Shown piece by piece: positions 10,874 to 59,489 of a stretch of DNA of 64,000 nucleotides. The first letter of the stretch is position 1. Each line of letters opens with the position of its first letter. The DNA is from an uncultured Candidatus Saccharibacteria bacterium. Its GTDB lineage: Bacteria; Patescibacteriota; Minisyncoccia; UBA9983. Location: positions 18,860 through 82,859 of the forward strand of contig CAYTKF010000001.1 of the NCBI GenBank assembly GCA_964438405.1, in the 5' to 3' direction. The notes beneath the pieces are model-generated. The model was not told the DNA's origin. It did not search any database and worked only from the letters and a program-made list of their open reading frames with translations. A program made the translations under genes and the position numbers.

Positions 10874-10917
10874 CTATTGTGAACAAATGGAACGATCGTG
10901 AAAAATGGTAACAATAG
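10874..10917. promoter_or_regulatory. 44-bp quasi-palindrome centred exactly on CGATCG (downstream-flank copy for PaaX-like gene 1)
   Basis: ctattgtgaacaaatggaaCGATCGtgaaaaatggtaacaatag. Terminal ctattgt/acaatag are exact inverted repeats, with 19-nt arms on each side of CGATCG. Confidence 0.5.
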
Positions 10918-10930
10918 ATTAGTAATAGAT

Positions 10931-11593
10931 TTATTGTTTTATTATTGCGCTCTTGAGTAAATTCTTAAAATAATATAAAACTTTCTCATCAGTCATTTCT
11001 TTTACAAGAAATATTTTCACAAGGGGCTTTATATTAAAAAAATCTTTTAAGAATTCTATTTCTTCTATACAAGGGAAAGGATGAACCCAAACGCTTTTCT
11101 GACACTGATAAAAATTAAGATCTTCCAATTTATTTCTAAGCGAGTCTCTAATTTTTCTTTGGTTTTCCGGTATGTCAAAAATAACAAGCCGCCAATTTCC
11201 ATCCCAATTTTTTGGGACACTAATTTTTAATTCATCAAGGATAAACTTTTTAATTTTTTTCTTTCCATTTTCAGTAACAGTATAAATAAGACAATCTTCT
11301 TCTTCTTTTAAAAATTCCAAATTGTGTTTTTGTTTTAATTTATTAAAGGTATACCATATTTTTCTATATTCTTCGTAACTTTCTCTTTTTTGCCTTTGTC
11401 TTATTTTTTCTATTATTCCTAAAACGTTAGGGAAGGCGACGCCAAAGGTTAAAATTCCTCCGGTAGCTATTAATGCAAGGGTGGCATTAAGAGTAGTTTT
11501 GGCTTTAGAGTTTTCTTTTATTATCCTTAAAAGATACTTTTTAAGGTTTGGTTCTAGGGTTGTTTCAAATTTTATCGGTTTGTGTTTAGGCAT
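10931..11593 (-). CDS. PaaX-family transcriptional regulator-like protein (paralog 1)
   Basis: NWDGNWRLVIFDIPENQRKIRDSLRNKLEDLNFYQCQKSVWVHP parallels the WDGKW...LW.GFG...P core of PaaX. Paralogous to 48177..48734. Confidence 0.5.
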   Translation of the reverse strand: MPKHKPIKFETTLEPNLKKYLLRIIKENSKAKTTLNATLALIATGGILTFGVAFPNVLGIIEKIRQRQKRESYEEYRKIWYTFNKLKQKHNLEFLKEEEDCLIYTVTENGKKKIKKFILDELKISVPKNWDGNWRLVIFDIPENQRKIRDSLRNKLEDLNFYQCQKSVWVHPFPCIEEIEFLKDFFNIKPLVKIFLVKEMTDEKVLYYFKNLLKSAIIKQ

Positions 11594-11626: not shown

Positions 11627-11670
11627 GCATTGTGACCAAATGGAGCGGTCGTGAAAAATGGTAACAATAG
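11627..11670. promoter_or_regulatory. Second copy of the 44-bp element (41/44 identical), upstream flank of PaaX-like gene 1
   Basis: gcattgtgaccaaatggagcggtcgtgaaaaatggtaacaatag, in the same orientation as 10874..10917. Confidence 0.5.
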
Positions 11671-11726
11671 AAAGTGGATGAGAATAGAGTAGTTACGGAA
11701 AATAAGTTGTGATATAATTTATTTAC

Positions 11727-33584: not shown

Positions 33585-35231
33585 ATGTTTTTTAGAAAAC
33601 GGCCGAAAATTAAAGACCTTCAGATTTACCCGGACGAGATTTTTCTGGATTCCAAAAACATTCCCAAATTTGACACCCAACAATTCGAGGGCAGGCTGGA
33701 AAAACCAATCAGCAAAAAAACTTTTTTTATTTTTTCCAGCTTTCTGGTCTTAATCTCTTTTTTTTATTTTGGCCAGGTTTTCAATCTGCAGGTTTTGCGC
33801 GGTCAGGCCATGGCCGACCGTTCCCAAAAAAACAATCTTAAAAAAGAAATAATTCTTCCCCCGCGAACAACTATAGCCGACAGAGACGGAGTGCGCCTTG
33901 CCTGGACAGACGGAGACCAAAGAAATTATATTGATATAGCCGGCTTTTCTCATATCATCGGTTATCTGGGCCTGCCGTCAAAAGAAGATTTACAGAATAA
34001 TCCGGGGCTGGCAATGAATGTCATAATCGGCAAAGAGGGAGTGGAAAAAAAATACGAGGAATTTTTAAGAGGCAACGCCGGAGTTAAACTAGTGGAATTT
34101 GATTCCCAAAACAACATTATTTCAGAAAGCGTGCAGACTTTGCCCGTTGCCAACGAAGATTTTAAACTGACAATTGACAGCGGAGTTCAGGCAAAACTTT
34201 TTGAGGCATTAAGTTCAGCCGGCAAAAATCTGGGATACAAGGGCGGAGCAGGAACTATTTTAGATGTAAACAACGGCGAAGTTTTGGCCTTGGCCAGCTA
34301 TCCGGAATATAAACAGGAAAACATCAGCGATTATTTAAACGCAAAAAATAATCCCTTTTTAAACCGCGCCATTTCCGGCCTTTACGCGCCCGGCTCCATT
34401 GTAAAACCATTTATTGCTCTGGCTGCGCTGAACGAAAATATAATTTCTCCGGACAAACAAATTTTTAGTTCCGGCAGCATTTCCATTCCCAATCCGTTTT
34501 TCCCGGACAAGAAAAATATTTTTCTTGACTGGAAAGCGCACGGCTGGACAGATATGAAAAAGGCTTTGGCTGTTTCCTCTGACGTTTATTTTTATGAGAT
34601 TGGCGGAGGATATCAGAATCAGAAGGGTTTAGGAATAAGTAAACTGGAAGACTATGCAAAACAATTCGGCATGGATTCCAAAACCGGCATTGATCTTTTG
34701 GGAGAAGAAAACGGCGTTGTGCCGGATCCGGAATTAAAGGCAAGGGCTGATCCGCGTGACCCGATTTGGCGCGTGGGGGATACTTACAACGCCAGCATTG
34801 GTCAGGGATATTTCCAGGTCACGCCAATAGAAATGGCTGTTTTTGCAGCTGCCTTGGCAAATAATGGTATTTTTGTCCAGCCCCATTTGGCCCCAGTTTT
34901 AAATAATAGTTCTGTAAAAACTATTGATATACCAAAAGAATATTTTGATATCGTCCGGGAGGGAATGCTCATGGCAGTAAAAGAAGGAACAGCCACAACT
35001 TTAAATGTGCCGGGAATAAGCATTGCCGCAAAAACAGGAACAGCGCAGGTTGGAGCGAATAATCAATTTACAAATTCGTGGGTCATTGGATTTTTCCCGT
35101 ACGAAAATCCCAAATATGCGTTTGCCGTTGTGACAGAAAGAGGGCCAAAAGACAGCGCAGCCGGCGCACAATACGTAATGCGCCAAATCCTGGACTGGCT
35201 GGCTATTTACAGACCGGAGTATTTAAAGTAA
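33585..35231 (+). CDS. mrdA: Penicillin-binding protein 2 (class B transpeptidase, elongation)
   Basis: SIVKPF (SxxK), SSDVYF (SxD/N), KTGTAQ (KTG). N-terminal TM anchor. Confidence 0.8.
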   Translation: MFFRKRPKIKDLQIYPDEIFLDSKNIPKFDTQQFEGRLEKPISKKTFFIFSSFLVLISFFYFGQVFNLQVLRGQAMADRSQKNNLKKEIILPPRTTIADRDGVRLAWTDGDQRNYIDIAGFSHIIGYLGLPSKEDLQNNPGLAMNVIIGKEGVEKKYEEFLRGNAGVKLVEFDSQNNIISESVQTLPVANEDFKLTIDSGVQAKLFEALSSAGKNLGYKGGAGTILDVNNGEVLALASYPEYKQENISDYLNAKNNPFLNRAISGLYAPGSIVKPFIALAALNENIISPDKQIFSSGSISIPNPFFPDKKNIFLDWKAHGWTDMKKALAVSSDVYFYEIGGGYQNQKGLGISKLEDYAKQFGMDSKTGIDLLGEENGVVPDPELKARADPRDPIWRVGDTYNASIGQGYFQVTPIEMAVFAAALANNGIFVQPHLAPVLNNSSVKTIDIPKEYFDIVREGMLMAVKEGTATTLNVPGISIAAKTGTAQVGANNQFTNSWVIGFFPYENPKYAFAVVTERGPKDSAAGAQYVMRQILDWLAIYRPEYLK

Positions 35232-36764: not shown

Positions 36765-36777
36765 ATATGTAATGGAA

Positions 36778-36834
36778 GTGGGGTATAGTGTAAGGGAAGT
36801 GGGGATAAGTGGATAAAACTGTGGAAACTGTGGA
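36778..36834 (+). promoter_or_regulatory. Array of five GTGG[G/A] direct repeats with about 10-nt periodicity upstream of mraZ (candidate MraZ operator)
   Basis: GTGGGG at 36778 and 36799; GTGGA at 36809, 36821 and 36830. MraZ in E. coli and other bacteria binds GTGGG-type direct repeats in its own promoter. Confidence 0.55.
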
Positions 36835-36859
36835 TAACTCCATTAAACCACTGAATAAT

Positions 36860-41469: not shown

Positions 41470-41541
41470 GGCCCTTTCGTCTAGCGGCTAGGACATCGCC
41501 CTCTCACGGCGGAAACACGGGTTCAATTCCCGTAGGGGTCA
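41470..41541 (+). tRNA. tRNA-Glu (anticodon CUC)
   Basis: GGCCCUUUCGUCUAGCGGCUAGGACAUCGCCCUCUCACGGCGGAAACACGGGUUCAAUUCCCGUAGGGGUCA. Cloverleaf with anticodon loop CUCUCAC, T-loop GGUUCAAUUCC. Close to E. coli tRNA-Glu. CCA not encoded. Confidence 0.8.
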
Positions 41542-48030: not shown

Positions 48031-48066
48031 CCCCCGACCGTGAAAGCGCGTCGGGGTTTTTTCTTT
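48031..48066 (+). terminator. Intrinsic terminator after ftsW/rodA
   Basis: cccccgac-cgtgaaagcgc-gtcgggg followed by ttttttcttttt. Confidence 0.8.
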
Positions 48067-48101
48067 TTATAATCAAAAACAGAAATTAAAAAAATAAAAA
48101 A

Positions 48102-48139
48102 TTAACGTATTCACAACCGATCGGTCGCCAATGCGTTAA
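48102..48139. promoter_or_regulatory. 38-bp quasi-palindrome centred exactly on CGATCG (upstream flank of PaaX-like gene 2)
   Basis: ttaacgtattcacaacCGATCGgtcgccaatgcgttaa. ttaacg/cgttaa termini are exact inverted repeats, with 16-nt arms. Confidence 0.5.
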
Positions 48140-48176
48140 TTTAATGTTAAGATATAATTAAGAATAAAATATCATT

Positions 48177-48734
48177 ATGGCTATAAAAATAAAAAGCGAA
48201 ACGAAACAAAAAATTCTACTTTTGCTTTTGGCGGGTTTGGCGTTAGGAATGTCAAAAACACCCAAAAGATATTTTAAGGTACTGAAAACTATTCCCAAAG
48301 AATGGAAAGATATAAAAAGAAGACAATTATTGGATGCTGTCCGCGAATTTTATAACAATAGAATCGTTGATTATAAAGAACTAAATGATGGCACAGTAGA
48401 AGTTGTCTTAACAAAAGAGGGAAGAAAGAGAGCGTTAATTTTTAAAATTGACGAAATGGAAATTAAAAAACCAGATAAGTGGGATGGCAAATGGAGAATA
48501 GTTATTTTTGATATTCCGGAAAAGAAGAGGGCAGCCAGATTTGCATTAAGAAACAAACTTAAAGATCTTGGTTTTAAAGAATTACAGAAAAGCGTTTTTG
48601 TTCATCCTTACGAATGCGAGGATGAAATTGATTTTATTGTAGAAGTATTTGAAATTAGACCCTATGTAAAATTCTTAAGAACAGATTCTTTTACAAATGA
48701 TGAACAATTTAAATTAAAATTTAAGATTTATTAA
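48177..48734 (+). CDS. PaaX-family transcriptional regulator-like protein (paralog 2)
   Basis: KWDGKWRIVIFDIPEKKRAARFALRNKLKDLGFKELQKSVFVHPYE. N-terminal wHTH-like segment KQKILLLLLAGLALG. Confidence 0.5.
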   Translation: MAIKIKSETKQKILLLLLAGLALGMSKTPKRYFKVLKTIPKEWKDIKRRQLLDAVREFYNNRIVDYKELNDGTVEVVLTKEGRKRALIFKIDEMEIKKPDKWDGKWRIVIFDIPEKKRAARFALRNKLKDLGFKELQKSVFVHPYECEDEIDFIVEVFEIRPYVKFLRTDSFTNDEQFKLKFKIY

Positions 48735-48762
48735 AAAAATATTAAAAACATATTTAATAAAA

Positions 48763-48800
48763 TTTACGTGTTTGTGGCCGATCGGTCACAGGTGCGTTAA
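48763..48800. promoter_or_regulatory. Second copy of the 38-bp CGATCG-centred palindrome (downstream flank of PaaX-like gene 2)
   Basis: tttacgtgtttgtggcCGATCGgtcacaggtgcgttaa. Inner tgtggccgatcggtcaca is a 16/18 palindrome. Confidence 0.5.
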
Positions 48801-48874
48801 TTTTAAAAATTAAATTAGAACTTAAAAAGTTGATAAGTTTTGTTTAAAGTCTTTAAATAATATATAATATCAAT

Positions 48875-50002
48875 ATGAAAATTTTGTTAGCAGGTGGGGG
48901 AACGGGCGGACATTTTTTTCCGTTGATGGCTGTGGCTGATGCGCTTAATGCTATTGCCGAACAGGAAAAAATCGCCAAAGTGGAAATTGTTTTTGCCTCT
49001 GACTCGCCCTATGACGAAAACCTGCTTTTGCAAAAGGGCATAAGATTTAAAAAAATTCCCGCGGGAAAAATCAGAAGGTATTTTTCTCTTTTAAATATTA
49101 TTGATGTTTTTAAAACAGGTATCGGATTATTAAAGGCCCTCTGGAGCATTTATCTTGATTTTCCTGATGTCATTTTCAGCAAGGGTGGTTATGCCAGCTT
49201 TCCTGTTGTTTTTGTAGCTAGAATTTTGGGCATACCATTGATTATCCATGAATCAGACACTGTGCCCGGCAGAGTAAACCGCTGGTCAGCCAAATTCGCC
49301 AAGAGAATCGCCATATCTTTTCCTCAGACAATAAAATATTTTCCAAAAGAAAAAACAGCCCTCACAGGCAATCCGGTAAGGAAAGAACTGCTTGTGCCGG
49401 CAAAAATCGGTGCAAAAGAATTTTTTAAACTTGAGGAAGCCACGCCTGTCATTATGATTTTCGGCGGTTCCCAGGGCTCGCAGAGAATAAACGATAATTT
49501 TTTGGATATAATCAGCGAGCTGGTAAAAAAATACCAAATCATTCATCAGGCGGGCAAAAAAAATTTTGACTATGTCAAAGGCAGGGCTGATGTTATTCTG
49601 GAAAATTCAGAATTCAAATCGCGGTATCAAGTTTTTGGGTTTTTAGATTTATCCATGATGAGAATGGCCTACGGCGCAAGCGACATTGTAGTGGCAAGAG
49701 CTGGTTCTGCCTCTATTTTTGAAATTGCCGCATCAGGCCTACCGTCTATTTTGATTCCCTTGGCAAATTCAGCCCAGAATCATCAGAAAGAAAACGCATT
49801 TAGCTATGCCTCGCTTGGCGCTGCTGATGTTATAGAAGAATCAAATCTTTCGCCCAGCGTATTGCGGGTTGAAATAGAAAGAATTTTGGGAGATAAAGAA
49901 AAAATGAAAAAAATGTCCGGGGTCGCTAAAAAATTTGTAAAACCAGACGCAGCAGAAAAACTGGCGCGGGAAATCATCGGCCTTGCCCTAGAGCACGCGT
50001 AA
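48875..50002 (+). CDS. murG: Undecaprenyldiphospho-muramoylpentapeptide beta-N-acetylglucosaminyltransferase MurG
   Basis: MKILLAGGGTGGHFFPLMAVADAL; C-terminal GT-B domain. Confidence 0.85.
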   Translation: MKILLAGGGTGGHFFPLMAVADALNAIAEQEKIAKVEIVFASDSPYDENLLLQKGIRFKKIPAGKIRRYFSLLNIIDVFKTGIGLLKALWSIYLDFPDVIFSKGGYASFPVVFVARILGIPLIIHESDTVPGRVNRWSAKFAKRIAISFPQTIKYFPKEKTALTGNPVRKELLVPAKIGAKEFFKLEEATPVIMIFGGSQGSQRINDNFLDIISELVKKYQIIHQAGKKNFDYVKGRADVILENSEFKSRYQVFGFLDLSMMRMAYGASDIVVARAGSASIFEIAASGLPSILIPLANSAQNHQKENAFSYASLGAADVIEESNLSPSVLRVEIERILGDKEKMKKMSGVAKKFVKPDAAEKLAREIIGLALEHA

Positions 50003-59137: not shown

Positions 59138-59416
59138 ATGACAAATTTGCCGGGTTTTTTACAAACCCCGTTTATGGCGGGACTTTCAACGGGATTTTTT
59201 CTTGTCATTCTTGCCTGGTCTCTTTTTTGGAAGGGATGGGCTTTGTGGAGGTCTGCCAGAACAGGACATAAATGGTGGTTTGTGGCTTTGTTGGTAATTA
59301 ATACTGTCGGTATCTTAGAAATTCTTTATCTTTTTGTTTTCAGCAAAAAGGGAGGTGTTTCAATAATGAAGACAGAAGAAAGCAAAACCCCAGAGCCTCC
59401 AATGAGTACGATGTAA
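59138..59416 (+). CDS. Small membrane protein, hypothetical
   Basis: 92 aa; 2 TM, W-rich (LFWKGWALWRSARTGHKWWFVALLVI). Confidence 0.35.
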   Translation: MTNLPGFLQTPFMAGLSTGFFLVILAWSLFWKGWALWRSARTGHKWWFVALLVINTVGILEILYLFVFSKKGGVSIMKTEESKTPEPPMSTM

Positions 59417-59489
59417 AAAAACGTCCCGCCGCTCGCGAGCGACGGGATTTTCGTTTATTTAAAATAAATATTGTGTAAATTACAGCAAT

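Follow-up and report, generated by a model that had tools for sequence, protein, structure and literature searches.

A PaaX-like, Cas2-fold protein encoded between two long palindromes: a putative autoregulator with predicted targets at gene ends in Parcubacteria

Introduction

In a stretch of 64,000 nucleotides (nt) from an uncultured Candidatus Saccharibacteria bacterium (contig CAYTKF010000001.1, positions 18,860 to 82,859 of the forward strand; hereafter the window), two related genes are each bracketed by a pair of long palindromes. Here, we analyze mainly the second of them, a gene on the + strand at 48177..48734 encoding a protein of 185 amino acids (aa) and named paralog 2, together with its upstream (U) and downstream (D) palindromes, and we compare it with paralog 1 of the same window and with homologs in other Parcubacteria. 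We found no description of this bracketing arrangement in the literature that we searched, and the layout suggests a putative autoregulated DNA-binding protein with further sites at the ends of other genes.

Among the closest described systems is PaaX of Escherichia coli and Pseudomonas (TIGR02277; domains PF07848, PF20803, and PF08223; PDB 8a39), whose central domain, PaaX_M, is shared with paralog 2. Its operator is long and consists of two short arms in inverted orientation, separated by about three helical turns; in E. coli, it reads TGATTC-N27-GAATCA (6-N27-6), and through steric hindrance PaaX acts as a repressor of its own promoter, Px (review PMC9493321). The U site of paralog 2 carries TTAACG-N26-CGTTAA, that is, a 6-N26-6 geometry, and its position before a -10 box fits autorepression by the predicted binding. 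The two systems differ in that the 8a39 chain has 305 aa against 185 aa here, the family protein lacking a C-terminal effector domain, and in that the family has a conserved core in its sites, an additional site past the gene, and genomes with several paralogs.

Cas2 (TIGR01573, PF09827) resembles the family in its ferredoxin-like fold, in the invariant Asp of an FDIP motif, and in being accompanied by palindromic repeats of 38-45 bp. Here, in contrast, Cas1, an array, and spacers are lacking, the domain is fused to a winged helix, and the repeats bracket the gene itself.

Genes located amid their own sites are known from phage lambda, in which the CI gene lies between OL and OR, and from P1, in which the RepA gene lies between incC and incA. 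In both, the order is site-gene-site and the upstream site overlaps the promoter, allowing autoregulation and looping or pairing, but their folds are unrelated to the present one and they belong to phage or plasmid replicons, whereas the family is chromosomal, with several paralogs and a single downstream palindrome. The highly iterated palindrome of cyanobacteria, HIP1 (GCGATCGC), is a bare octamer, extremely frequent and present also inside genes. This octamer is identical to the commonest core of the family sites, where it instead forms the center of a 44-bp palindrome in few intergenic places; CGATCG alone is not enriched in the window (5 copies versus 6.8 expected).

A further comparison is offered by the repetitive extragenic palindromes and their associated tyrosine transposases (REP/REPIN-RAYT) of Pseudomonas and enterobacteria, in which extragenic palindromes of a gene-specific type stand on both sides of a vertically inherited single-copy gene (PMC3337134). 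The likeness extends to one type per paralog and, in some lineages, to dispersed intergenic copies with A/T runs and terminator-like positions. The differences are that the family protein is not an IS200-like HUH/Y1 transposase, that each flank is here one complete 44-bp palindrome and not a REP doublet, and that dispersal is seen in some lineages only and not in the window, mobility being here only a candidate.

Results

Two palindromes bracket paralog 2

The 185-aa open reading frame (ORF) claimed from the sequence at 48177..48734 is present on the + strand, with ftsW upstream and murG downstream as had been noted, and palindromes do flank it on both sides. A repeat search returned the U and D sites as a 45-nt direct repeat pair (48098..48142 and 48759..48803), 76% identical, each copy being an imperfect palindrome with CCGATCGG at its center (48117-48124 and 48778-48785, respectively). 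Around the core, the upstream copy reads TTAACGTATTCACAAC-CGATCG-GTCGCCAATGCGTTAA (48102..48139) and the downstream copy TTTACGTGTTTGTGGC-CGATCG-GTCACAGGTGCGTTAA (48763..48800). By our count, Watson-Crick pairs join 12/16 arm positions upstream and 10/16 downstream, where the count rises to 15/16 once G-T pairs of the + strand are included. The ttaacg/cgttaa termini given in the original prediction are those of the U site (TTAACG...CGTTAA), but the downstream site has the terminus TTTACG. For the pattern ACG-N10-CGATCG-N10-CGT, the window contains two matches where 0.03 would be expected, a half-site pattern matched four times in the window and never in 100 shuffles, and pattern scans of the 64 kb detected no family sites beyond the four that flank the two genes. 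The D site begins 25 nt past the stop codon, about 70 nt ahead of murG. Rfam gave no match at the palindromes.

The U site is located between a terminator and a likely promoter element, both read from the sequence. The ftsW terminator (48032..48062, + strand) is a G+C-rich hairpin, CCCCGAC, 11 nt, GTCGGGG, followed by TTTTTT, omitted by the automated terminator scan because its loop exceeds 8 nt; this hairpin sets the U site apart from transcription of ftsW. A TATAAT box (48153..48158, + strand), 19 nt ahead of the ATG, is the likely -10 element for paralog 2; the promoter consensus scan omitted it for want of a -35 match 16-18 nt upstream and listed TTAAGA-17-TATCAT (48147-48175) instead. As the U site stands between these two elements, over the -35/spacer region, it is probably not transcribed with the paralog 2 gene. 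Its placement just before the -10 box, taken with the PaaX-like 6-N26-6 spacing, makes autoregulation of paralog 2 by a dimer the best reading of this region.

A minimal PaaX-like protein

In the paralog 2 protein, a Cas2-like (PaaX_M) domain follows an N-terminal winged-helix part that is divergent. Pfam matched PaaX_M (PF20803) at aa 100-176 with 1.9e-25 and Cas2 with 1.5e-05. The protein, called PaaX-like when the gene was first noticed, is not PaaX: in NCBIfam, it reaches 34.9 bits against the TIGR02277 equivalog (paralog 1, 29.7 bits), below the cut-off of 264.55, Pfam found no PaaX_C (PF08223) in it, and it ends about 10 residues past the Cas2-like domain. The N-terminal PaaX model PF07848 gave no Pfam match. 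No paa genes lie near paralog 2, whose neighbors are ftsW and murG, nor at the 62 family loci described below (DnaE, RNase HII, aldolase, DnaJ, RecR, and similar). The Cas2 cut-offs are narrowly passed (TIGR01573, 28.3 versus 24.5; PF09827, 25.5 versus 23.8) by models that cover only part of the domain, from strand 1 through helix 1 (roughly residues 106-147), and D112, the Asp of the FDIP motif, is invariant in the family alignments of both clades. Pfam and NCBIfam profiles revealed no HUH or tyrosine transposase domain, and a PDB sequence search gave weak matches only.

An AlphaFold model built from an alignment with both clades (an earlier, shallow alignment had given a poor N-terminus) shows helix-helix-helix-wing, a linker helix, and then a beta-alpha-beta-beta-alpha-beta fold, with the winged-helix topology at residues ~8-78 and a predicted local distance difference test score (pLDDT) >90 in the Cas2-like domain. 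In summary, the 185-aa protein is a minimal PaaX-like protein without the PaaX effector domain, and it is not CRISPR Cas2. Its first helix (residues 12-25, within 48177-48260, KILLLLLAGLALGM) is unusually hydrophobic for a winged-helix regulator; AlphaFold confidence is low for this helix, and a similar stretch is present in paralog 1.

Paralog 1 has its own palindrome pair

Paralog 1 (10931..11593, - strand, 220 aa) has the same two-domain build, with PaaX_M (PF20803) matched by Pfam at 7.9e-23. Its upstream palindrome (11629..11671) is centered on CGACCG on the gene strand, and its downstream palindrome (10876..10918), located between the convergent paralog 1 and rseP, on CGATCG; together, they form a 43-nt repeat pair, 93% identical, with arms unlike those of paralog 2. 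The claim of a CGATCG center in both systems consequently holds for both copies at paralog 2 and for the downstream copy at paralog 1, but not for the upstream copy of the latter. The gene order is rseP, paralog 1, and peptidase-like genes, in agreement with the proposed placement between rseP and a protease cluster. Paralog 1 belongs to a clade of its own, in which the layout recurs with a distinct arm type, ATTGT...ACAAT, and an ortholog, 80% identical, occupies the same place beside rseP with the same flanking sites.

The two proteins are true paralogs, as the idea of duplicated regulators required, with 47% identity over the C-terminal 109 aa (BLASTP 2e-32) and not the 35-40% first estimated, while their N-termini do not align. 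That each gene has its own palindrome pair with differing arms was also borne out, arm and spacer identity being 0.25-0.33 between the two systems versus 0.69 and 0.92 within each. The shared core accompanies the conserved C-terminal domain, and the different arms accompany the unalignable N-termini. The hypothesis that the paralog genes and their long dyad sites with a common core may co-evolve is partly supported by these comparisons.

The layout recurs across the Parcubacteria family

Searches with the paralog 2 protein returned more than 2800 homologs, those listed being 63-77% identical and originating from Parcubacteria/Paceibacteria bins. For a survey of the family, both flanks of the gene were compared at 62 genome loci, with simple ORF and start-codon calls of our own; as many of these loci are related, the counts lack independence. 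Most family genes have a palindrome of about 44 bp on either side; counting 61 genome loci and both genes of the window, a U site with a family-type core was present in 52 cases and such a D site in 53. The U center lies 40-67 nt ahead of the ATG and the D center 20-70 nt past the stop codon. The center is nearly always (G)CGATCG(C), with GCGATCGC as the commonest octamer, the one-base variants GCTATCGC, GCGGTCGC, CCGATCGG, and ACGATCGT, and the cores GCTCCAGC or GTCATGAC in two small clades; the CGATCG-type center, whose universality had been proposed as a check, therefore recurs across the family loci. In the family logo, arm complementarity peaks 13-18 bp from the center.

Sites follow their locus. 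Outside the core, identity is 0.75 between the two sites of a locus and 0.38 across loci, and 87% of the 46 loci with two sites exceed the 95th percentile of cross-locus pairs; paralogs of the same genome bear different sites. The promoter position also recurs: a -10 box (≥5/6 match) accompanies 37/52 of the U sites, starting at a median of 27 nt from the site center (interquartile range 22-33), with scattered offsets for -10-like boxes behind D sites. U and D are mostly direct repeats, and some pairs are identical (45/45 in L008, 40/40 in L033, and 38/38 in L037).

Some loci depart from this common form. In L015, L051, L040, and L011, the D site is the reverse complement of the U site (e.g., 43/45 in L015), and in L018 and L007, the core is asymmetric and has opposite orientations in the U and D copies. 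L008 and L018, both from the QZIU01 genome, contain paralogs with common outer arms AAATGTTACCA and the cores GCGATCGC versus GCTCCAGC/GCTGGAGC. Upstream of the regular U site, L001 (3739-3783) and L050 (3688-3732) have a second strong palindrome with a family-type core and other arms, which could belong to a further paralog or be left over from a unit since lost. We also considered whether residues of the Cas2-like domain track the core type; this was suggestive for the GTCATGAC clade (IPQTKK, AIS), is confounded by phylogeny, and was contradicted for the GCTCCAGC type.

Neighbor clustering placed family genes at several conserved positions, namely, DnaE / gene / RNase HII-L32-NusB-RNase III-SMC, transketolase-kinase / gene / aldolase-dehydrogenase-L25, DnaK-x-DnaJ / gene, and RmuC-L21 / gene / RecR-DnaB-CysS, two of which co-occur in the same genomes. 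These positions between housekeeping genes show the unit to be old and vertically inherited, and a recently mobile miniature inverted-repeat transposable element (MITE) or insertion sequence was ruled out by the synteny of several paralog positions across genera. The ftsW/gene/murG placement of the window is absent from the other 62 loci. In one lineage, a site-gene-site unit lies between lysS and mraZ; in the window, the lysS-mraZ junction has neither unit nor palindrome. At about half of the loci, the family gene faces a convergent downstream neighbor, as paralog 1 does in the window, so that the D copy cannot be the operator of a neighboring gene, and this candidate was discarded.

The palindromes are dispersed in some relatives

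A metagenome collection was scanned for AAATG-N13-GCGATCGC-N13-CATTT, with matches dominated by a few groundwater samples. Among the matches listed (130 sites), 21 lie beside a family gene; the remaining 109 were counted as away from one, 56 of them clearly so. The solo sites are, in this set, intergenic, with a median distance of 26 nt from a stop codon versus 98 nt from a start codon, beside unrelated housekeeping genes such as CysS, PyrG, RuvC, and DnaX. A and T runs stand on either side of them. The main type, AAATGTACACG...GCGATCGC...CGTGTACATTT, occurs in at least 43 neighbor contexts, and the same type flanks the family gene of that lineage. Around other family genes, about four extra copies were found in 460 kb. 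One palindrome type joins DnaX-RuvC in one contig and YebC-DnaX and TrmB-like-RuvC in others (L150, L072, and L069), so that rearrangement breakpoints between related genomes coincide exactly with the palindromes.

These results qualify the original prediction in two respects. The operators it called private are indeed separate for each paralog here, but they are not private in all lineages, given the main type in at least 43 other contexts. It had also counted as fatal the case that the palindromes belong to a widespread MITE unrelated to these genes; a dispersed repeat family approaches this, but as the dispersed type is the type that flanks the lineage's own gene, the repeats are not unrelated to the family gene.

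In the GTACAC lineage (L063-L182), the two 7-nt spacers are non-palindromic and purine-rich on the same strand (e.g., AAAAAAT ... TACGGAG), half-sites pair almost only an A-rich type with a pyrimidine-rich type, and the purine-rich strand is the gene sense strand in 17/17 gene-flanking sites with a clear purine lean. This asymmetry is present in that lineage but not family-wide, and our model makes no use of it.

The palindromes as duplex DNA or as RNA

The D site of paralog 2 was flagged as terminator-like on the + strand, with 14 pairs followed by a T-rich tail, and its RNA folds at -20.8 kcal/mol (z -5) on the + strand versus -11.1 on the - strand, while the paralog 1 sites fold as RNA no better than shuffles. 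Across 46 loci, no preference for sense over antisense folding was detected (p 0.8 and 0.18), the arm mismatches of family sites are mostly non-wobble, and the palindromy continues through the exact center. An RNA hairpin as the common function was rejected on the missing strand preference and the non-wobble mismatches. Considering these together with the placement of the U site, we conclude from the sequence comparisons that the common function of the palindromes would act on duplex DNA; individual D copies may also help termination.

Discussion

We propose that paralog 2 and its relatives are autoregulated winged-helix and Cas2-fold DNA-binding proteins with a family of gene-end palindromes as their true targets, a reading to which we assign a probability of roughly 55%. 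From the site geometry and the domain build, we infer that one dimer would span one palindrome of ~40-44 bp, its two winged helices reading the outer arms, about three helical turns apart, and the central Cas2-fold dimer lying over the conserved (G)CGATCG(C) core. The U copy, covering the -35/spacer region directly before the -10 box, would let the protein control its own synthesis, most likely by repression, with RNA polymerase occluded in the manner of E. coli PaaX at Px. The D copy behind the stop codon would be a second binding site that marks the gene end, and it could loop to the U site or serve as a roadblock or insulator. Co-evolution of protein and site would keep paralogs of one genome from cross-reacting. 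As the same palindrome type lies behind the stops of many other genes in relatives, the job of the protein is probably genome-wide; it would bind a family of gene-end palindromes throughout the genome, of which the two around its own gene would be the conserved minimum.

Several observations weigh against this proposal or against its simplest form. Solo sites favor 3' ends, with 20 in convergent versus 6 in divergent gaps among the matches listed (background 67 and 70), which are not operator positions. In one lineage, conservation of the dispersed copies spans all 44-48 nt, the non-palindromic spacers included, and ends sharply; this exceeds the need of a binding site and suggests copying; in the 64-kb window, there are no dispersed copies at all. 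At D sites, G-T mismatches are mildly in excess over A-C (66 versus 33), and the D site of paralog 2 folds far better as sense RNA, so that a terminator role is possible for that copy. The N-terminal 45 residues of paralog 2, moreover, are a low-confidence part of the AlphaFold model. Finally, family proteins are 63-77% identical across Parcubacteria, compared with ~40% for CysS in the same loci, and self-regulation alone would not explain this identity. The system is probably more than a simple self-regulating switch.

In the main rival reading, the palindromes would be copied short repeats, as in REP/RAYT systems. The dedicated nuclease or mobilizing factor would be the Cas2-fold protein, which has an invariant Asp in FDIP and whose gene is bracketed by its own repeat type. 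The one type per paralog around the gene, its recurrence in at least 43 other neighbor contexts of a related lineage, the copies behind stops with A/T runs alongside and 44-48 conserved nt with sharp boundaries, the vertical inheritance at fixed positions known for RAYTs (PMC3337134), the invariance of D112 in both clades of a family scoring above the Cas2 model cut-offs, and the synteny breakpoints at sites (L150, L072, and L069) all agree with it. The protein, however, has no HUH or tyrosine transposase domain, dispersed copies are absent from the window and few in the 460 kb of gene-anchored loci, and the PaaX-like operator geometry and promoter position are read more simply as those of a regulator. 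Cas2-fold proteins, moreover, are not known to transpose DNA. We regard this explanation as unlikely, and as slightly less likely again its bolder form, in which a Cas2-fold protein without Cas1 or a transposase would recognize and maintain or spread its own 44-bp repeats at gene ends, these serving as rearrangement breakpoints in Parcubacteria. Mobility of another kind would be implied if the site-gene-site unit were an integrated cassette, with the direct repeats as attL/attR and the solo palindromes as empty or scar sites. Direct and sometimes identical repeats (L008, L033, and L037), the unit between lysS and mraZ in one lineage with neither unit nor leftover site there in the window, the ftsW/gene/murG placement found at none of the other 62 loci, and a commonest solo spacer combination made of the left half of U and the right half of D (among the matches listed) would all suit such a cassette. 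Yet no recombinase lies nearby, several paralog positions are stable across genera, the sites are inverted in L015, L051, and L040, and the paralogs of one genome are old and diverged, with no recent hopping seen, which together make it improbable.

The palindromes might, alternatively, be bidirectional intrinsic terminators or stabilizers of mRNA ends without any specific link to the protein. The terminator-like D site of the window (-20.8 kcal/mol, z -5), the solo sites directly behind stops with A/T runs, and the G-T excess at D sites point in this direction. Against it, the U copy lies after the ftsW terminator and before the -10 box and is probably untranscribed with the gene, folding has no family-wide strand preference, most mismatches are non-wobble, and the paralog 1 sites fold like shuffles; furthermore, a conserved, self-complementary GCGATCGC is not needed in a loop, and the arm types follow the protein clade. 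We judge RNA hairpins to be as doubtful a general explanation as the integrated cassette. The idea of a CRISPR-associated Cas2 beside a degenerate array of two repeats owes its appeal to a score just above the Cas2 cut-offs, to the name Cas2 given to the protein by several sources, and to two flanking palindromic repeats of CRISPR-repeat size. The context contradicts it, as the window contains no CRISPR array, cas1 and other cas genes are absent alongside, the neighbors being housekeeping genes, the "spacer" would equal a 550-bp gene, and the protein has an extra N-terminal domain and a far better match to PaaX_M (1.9e-25); we consider it highly improbable.

Thousands of proteins belong to the family, which ranks with the better conserved ones of Parcubacteria, and databases label it "PaaX," "Cas2," or "PadR," of which PaaX and CRISPR Cas2 fail the above tests and none describes the role of the family. 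The bracketing palindromes supply a predicted binding site for each member, so that specificity and its co-evolution can be tested directly in uncultured bacteria, of which very few regulators are known. If the same protein indeed binds the dispersed copies, this would be a new kind of gene-end marking or repeat-maintenance system and, next to REP/RAYT, a second case in which a protein coexists with a repeat family of its own. The combination of a Cas2 fold with palindromic repeats could bear on the origin of CRISPR repeat recognition.

Other features of the window

The window has a G+C content of 39.6% and contains the division and cell wall (dcw) cluster and other housekeeping genes. Just upstream of mraZ (start 36861), positions 36775-36840 contain GTGG[GA] direct repeats with a spacing of about 10 nt (GAAGTGGGGTATAGTGTAAGGGAAGTGGGGATAAGTGGATAAAACTGTGGAAACTGTGGATAAC), a run that looks like the operator array of MraZ. 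A tRNA-Glu gene (CTC; 41470-41541) lies within the cell-wall cluster, between murF and a D-alanyl-D-alanine carboxypeptidase-like gene. The convergent murG (+ strand, ending at 50002) and cysS (- strand, ending at 49974) overlap by 29 nt at their 3' ends (49974-50002). Two further long palindromes without a CGATCG core, each with 15/20 arm pairs, lie at 34498-34537 and at 59416-59455; the latter is G+C-rich and resembles an ordinary terminator.

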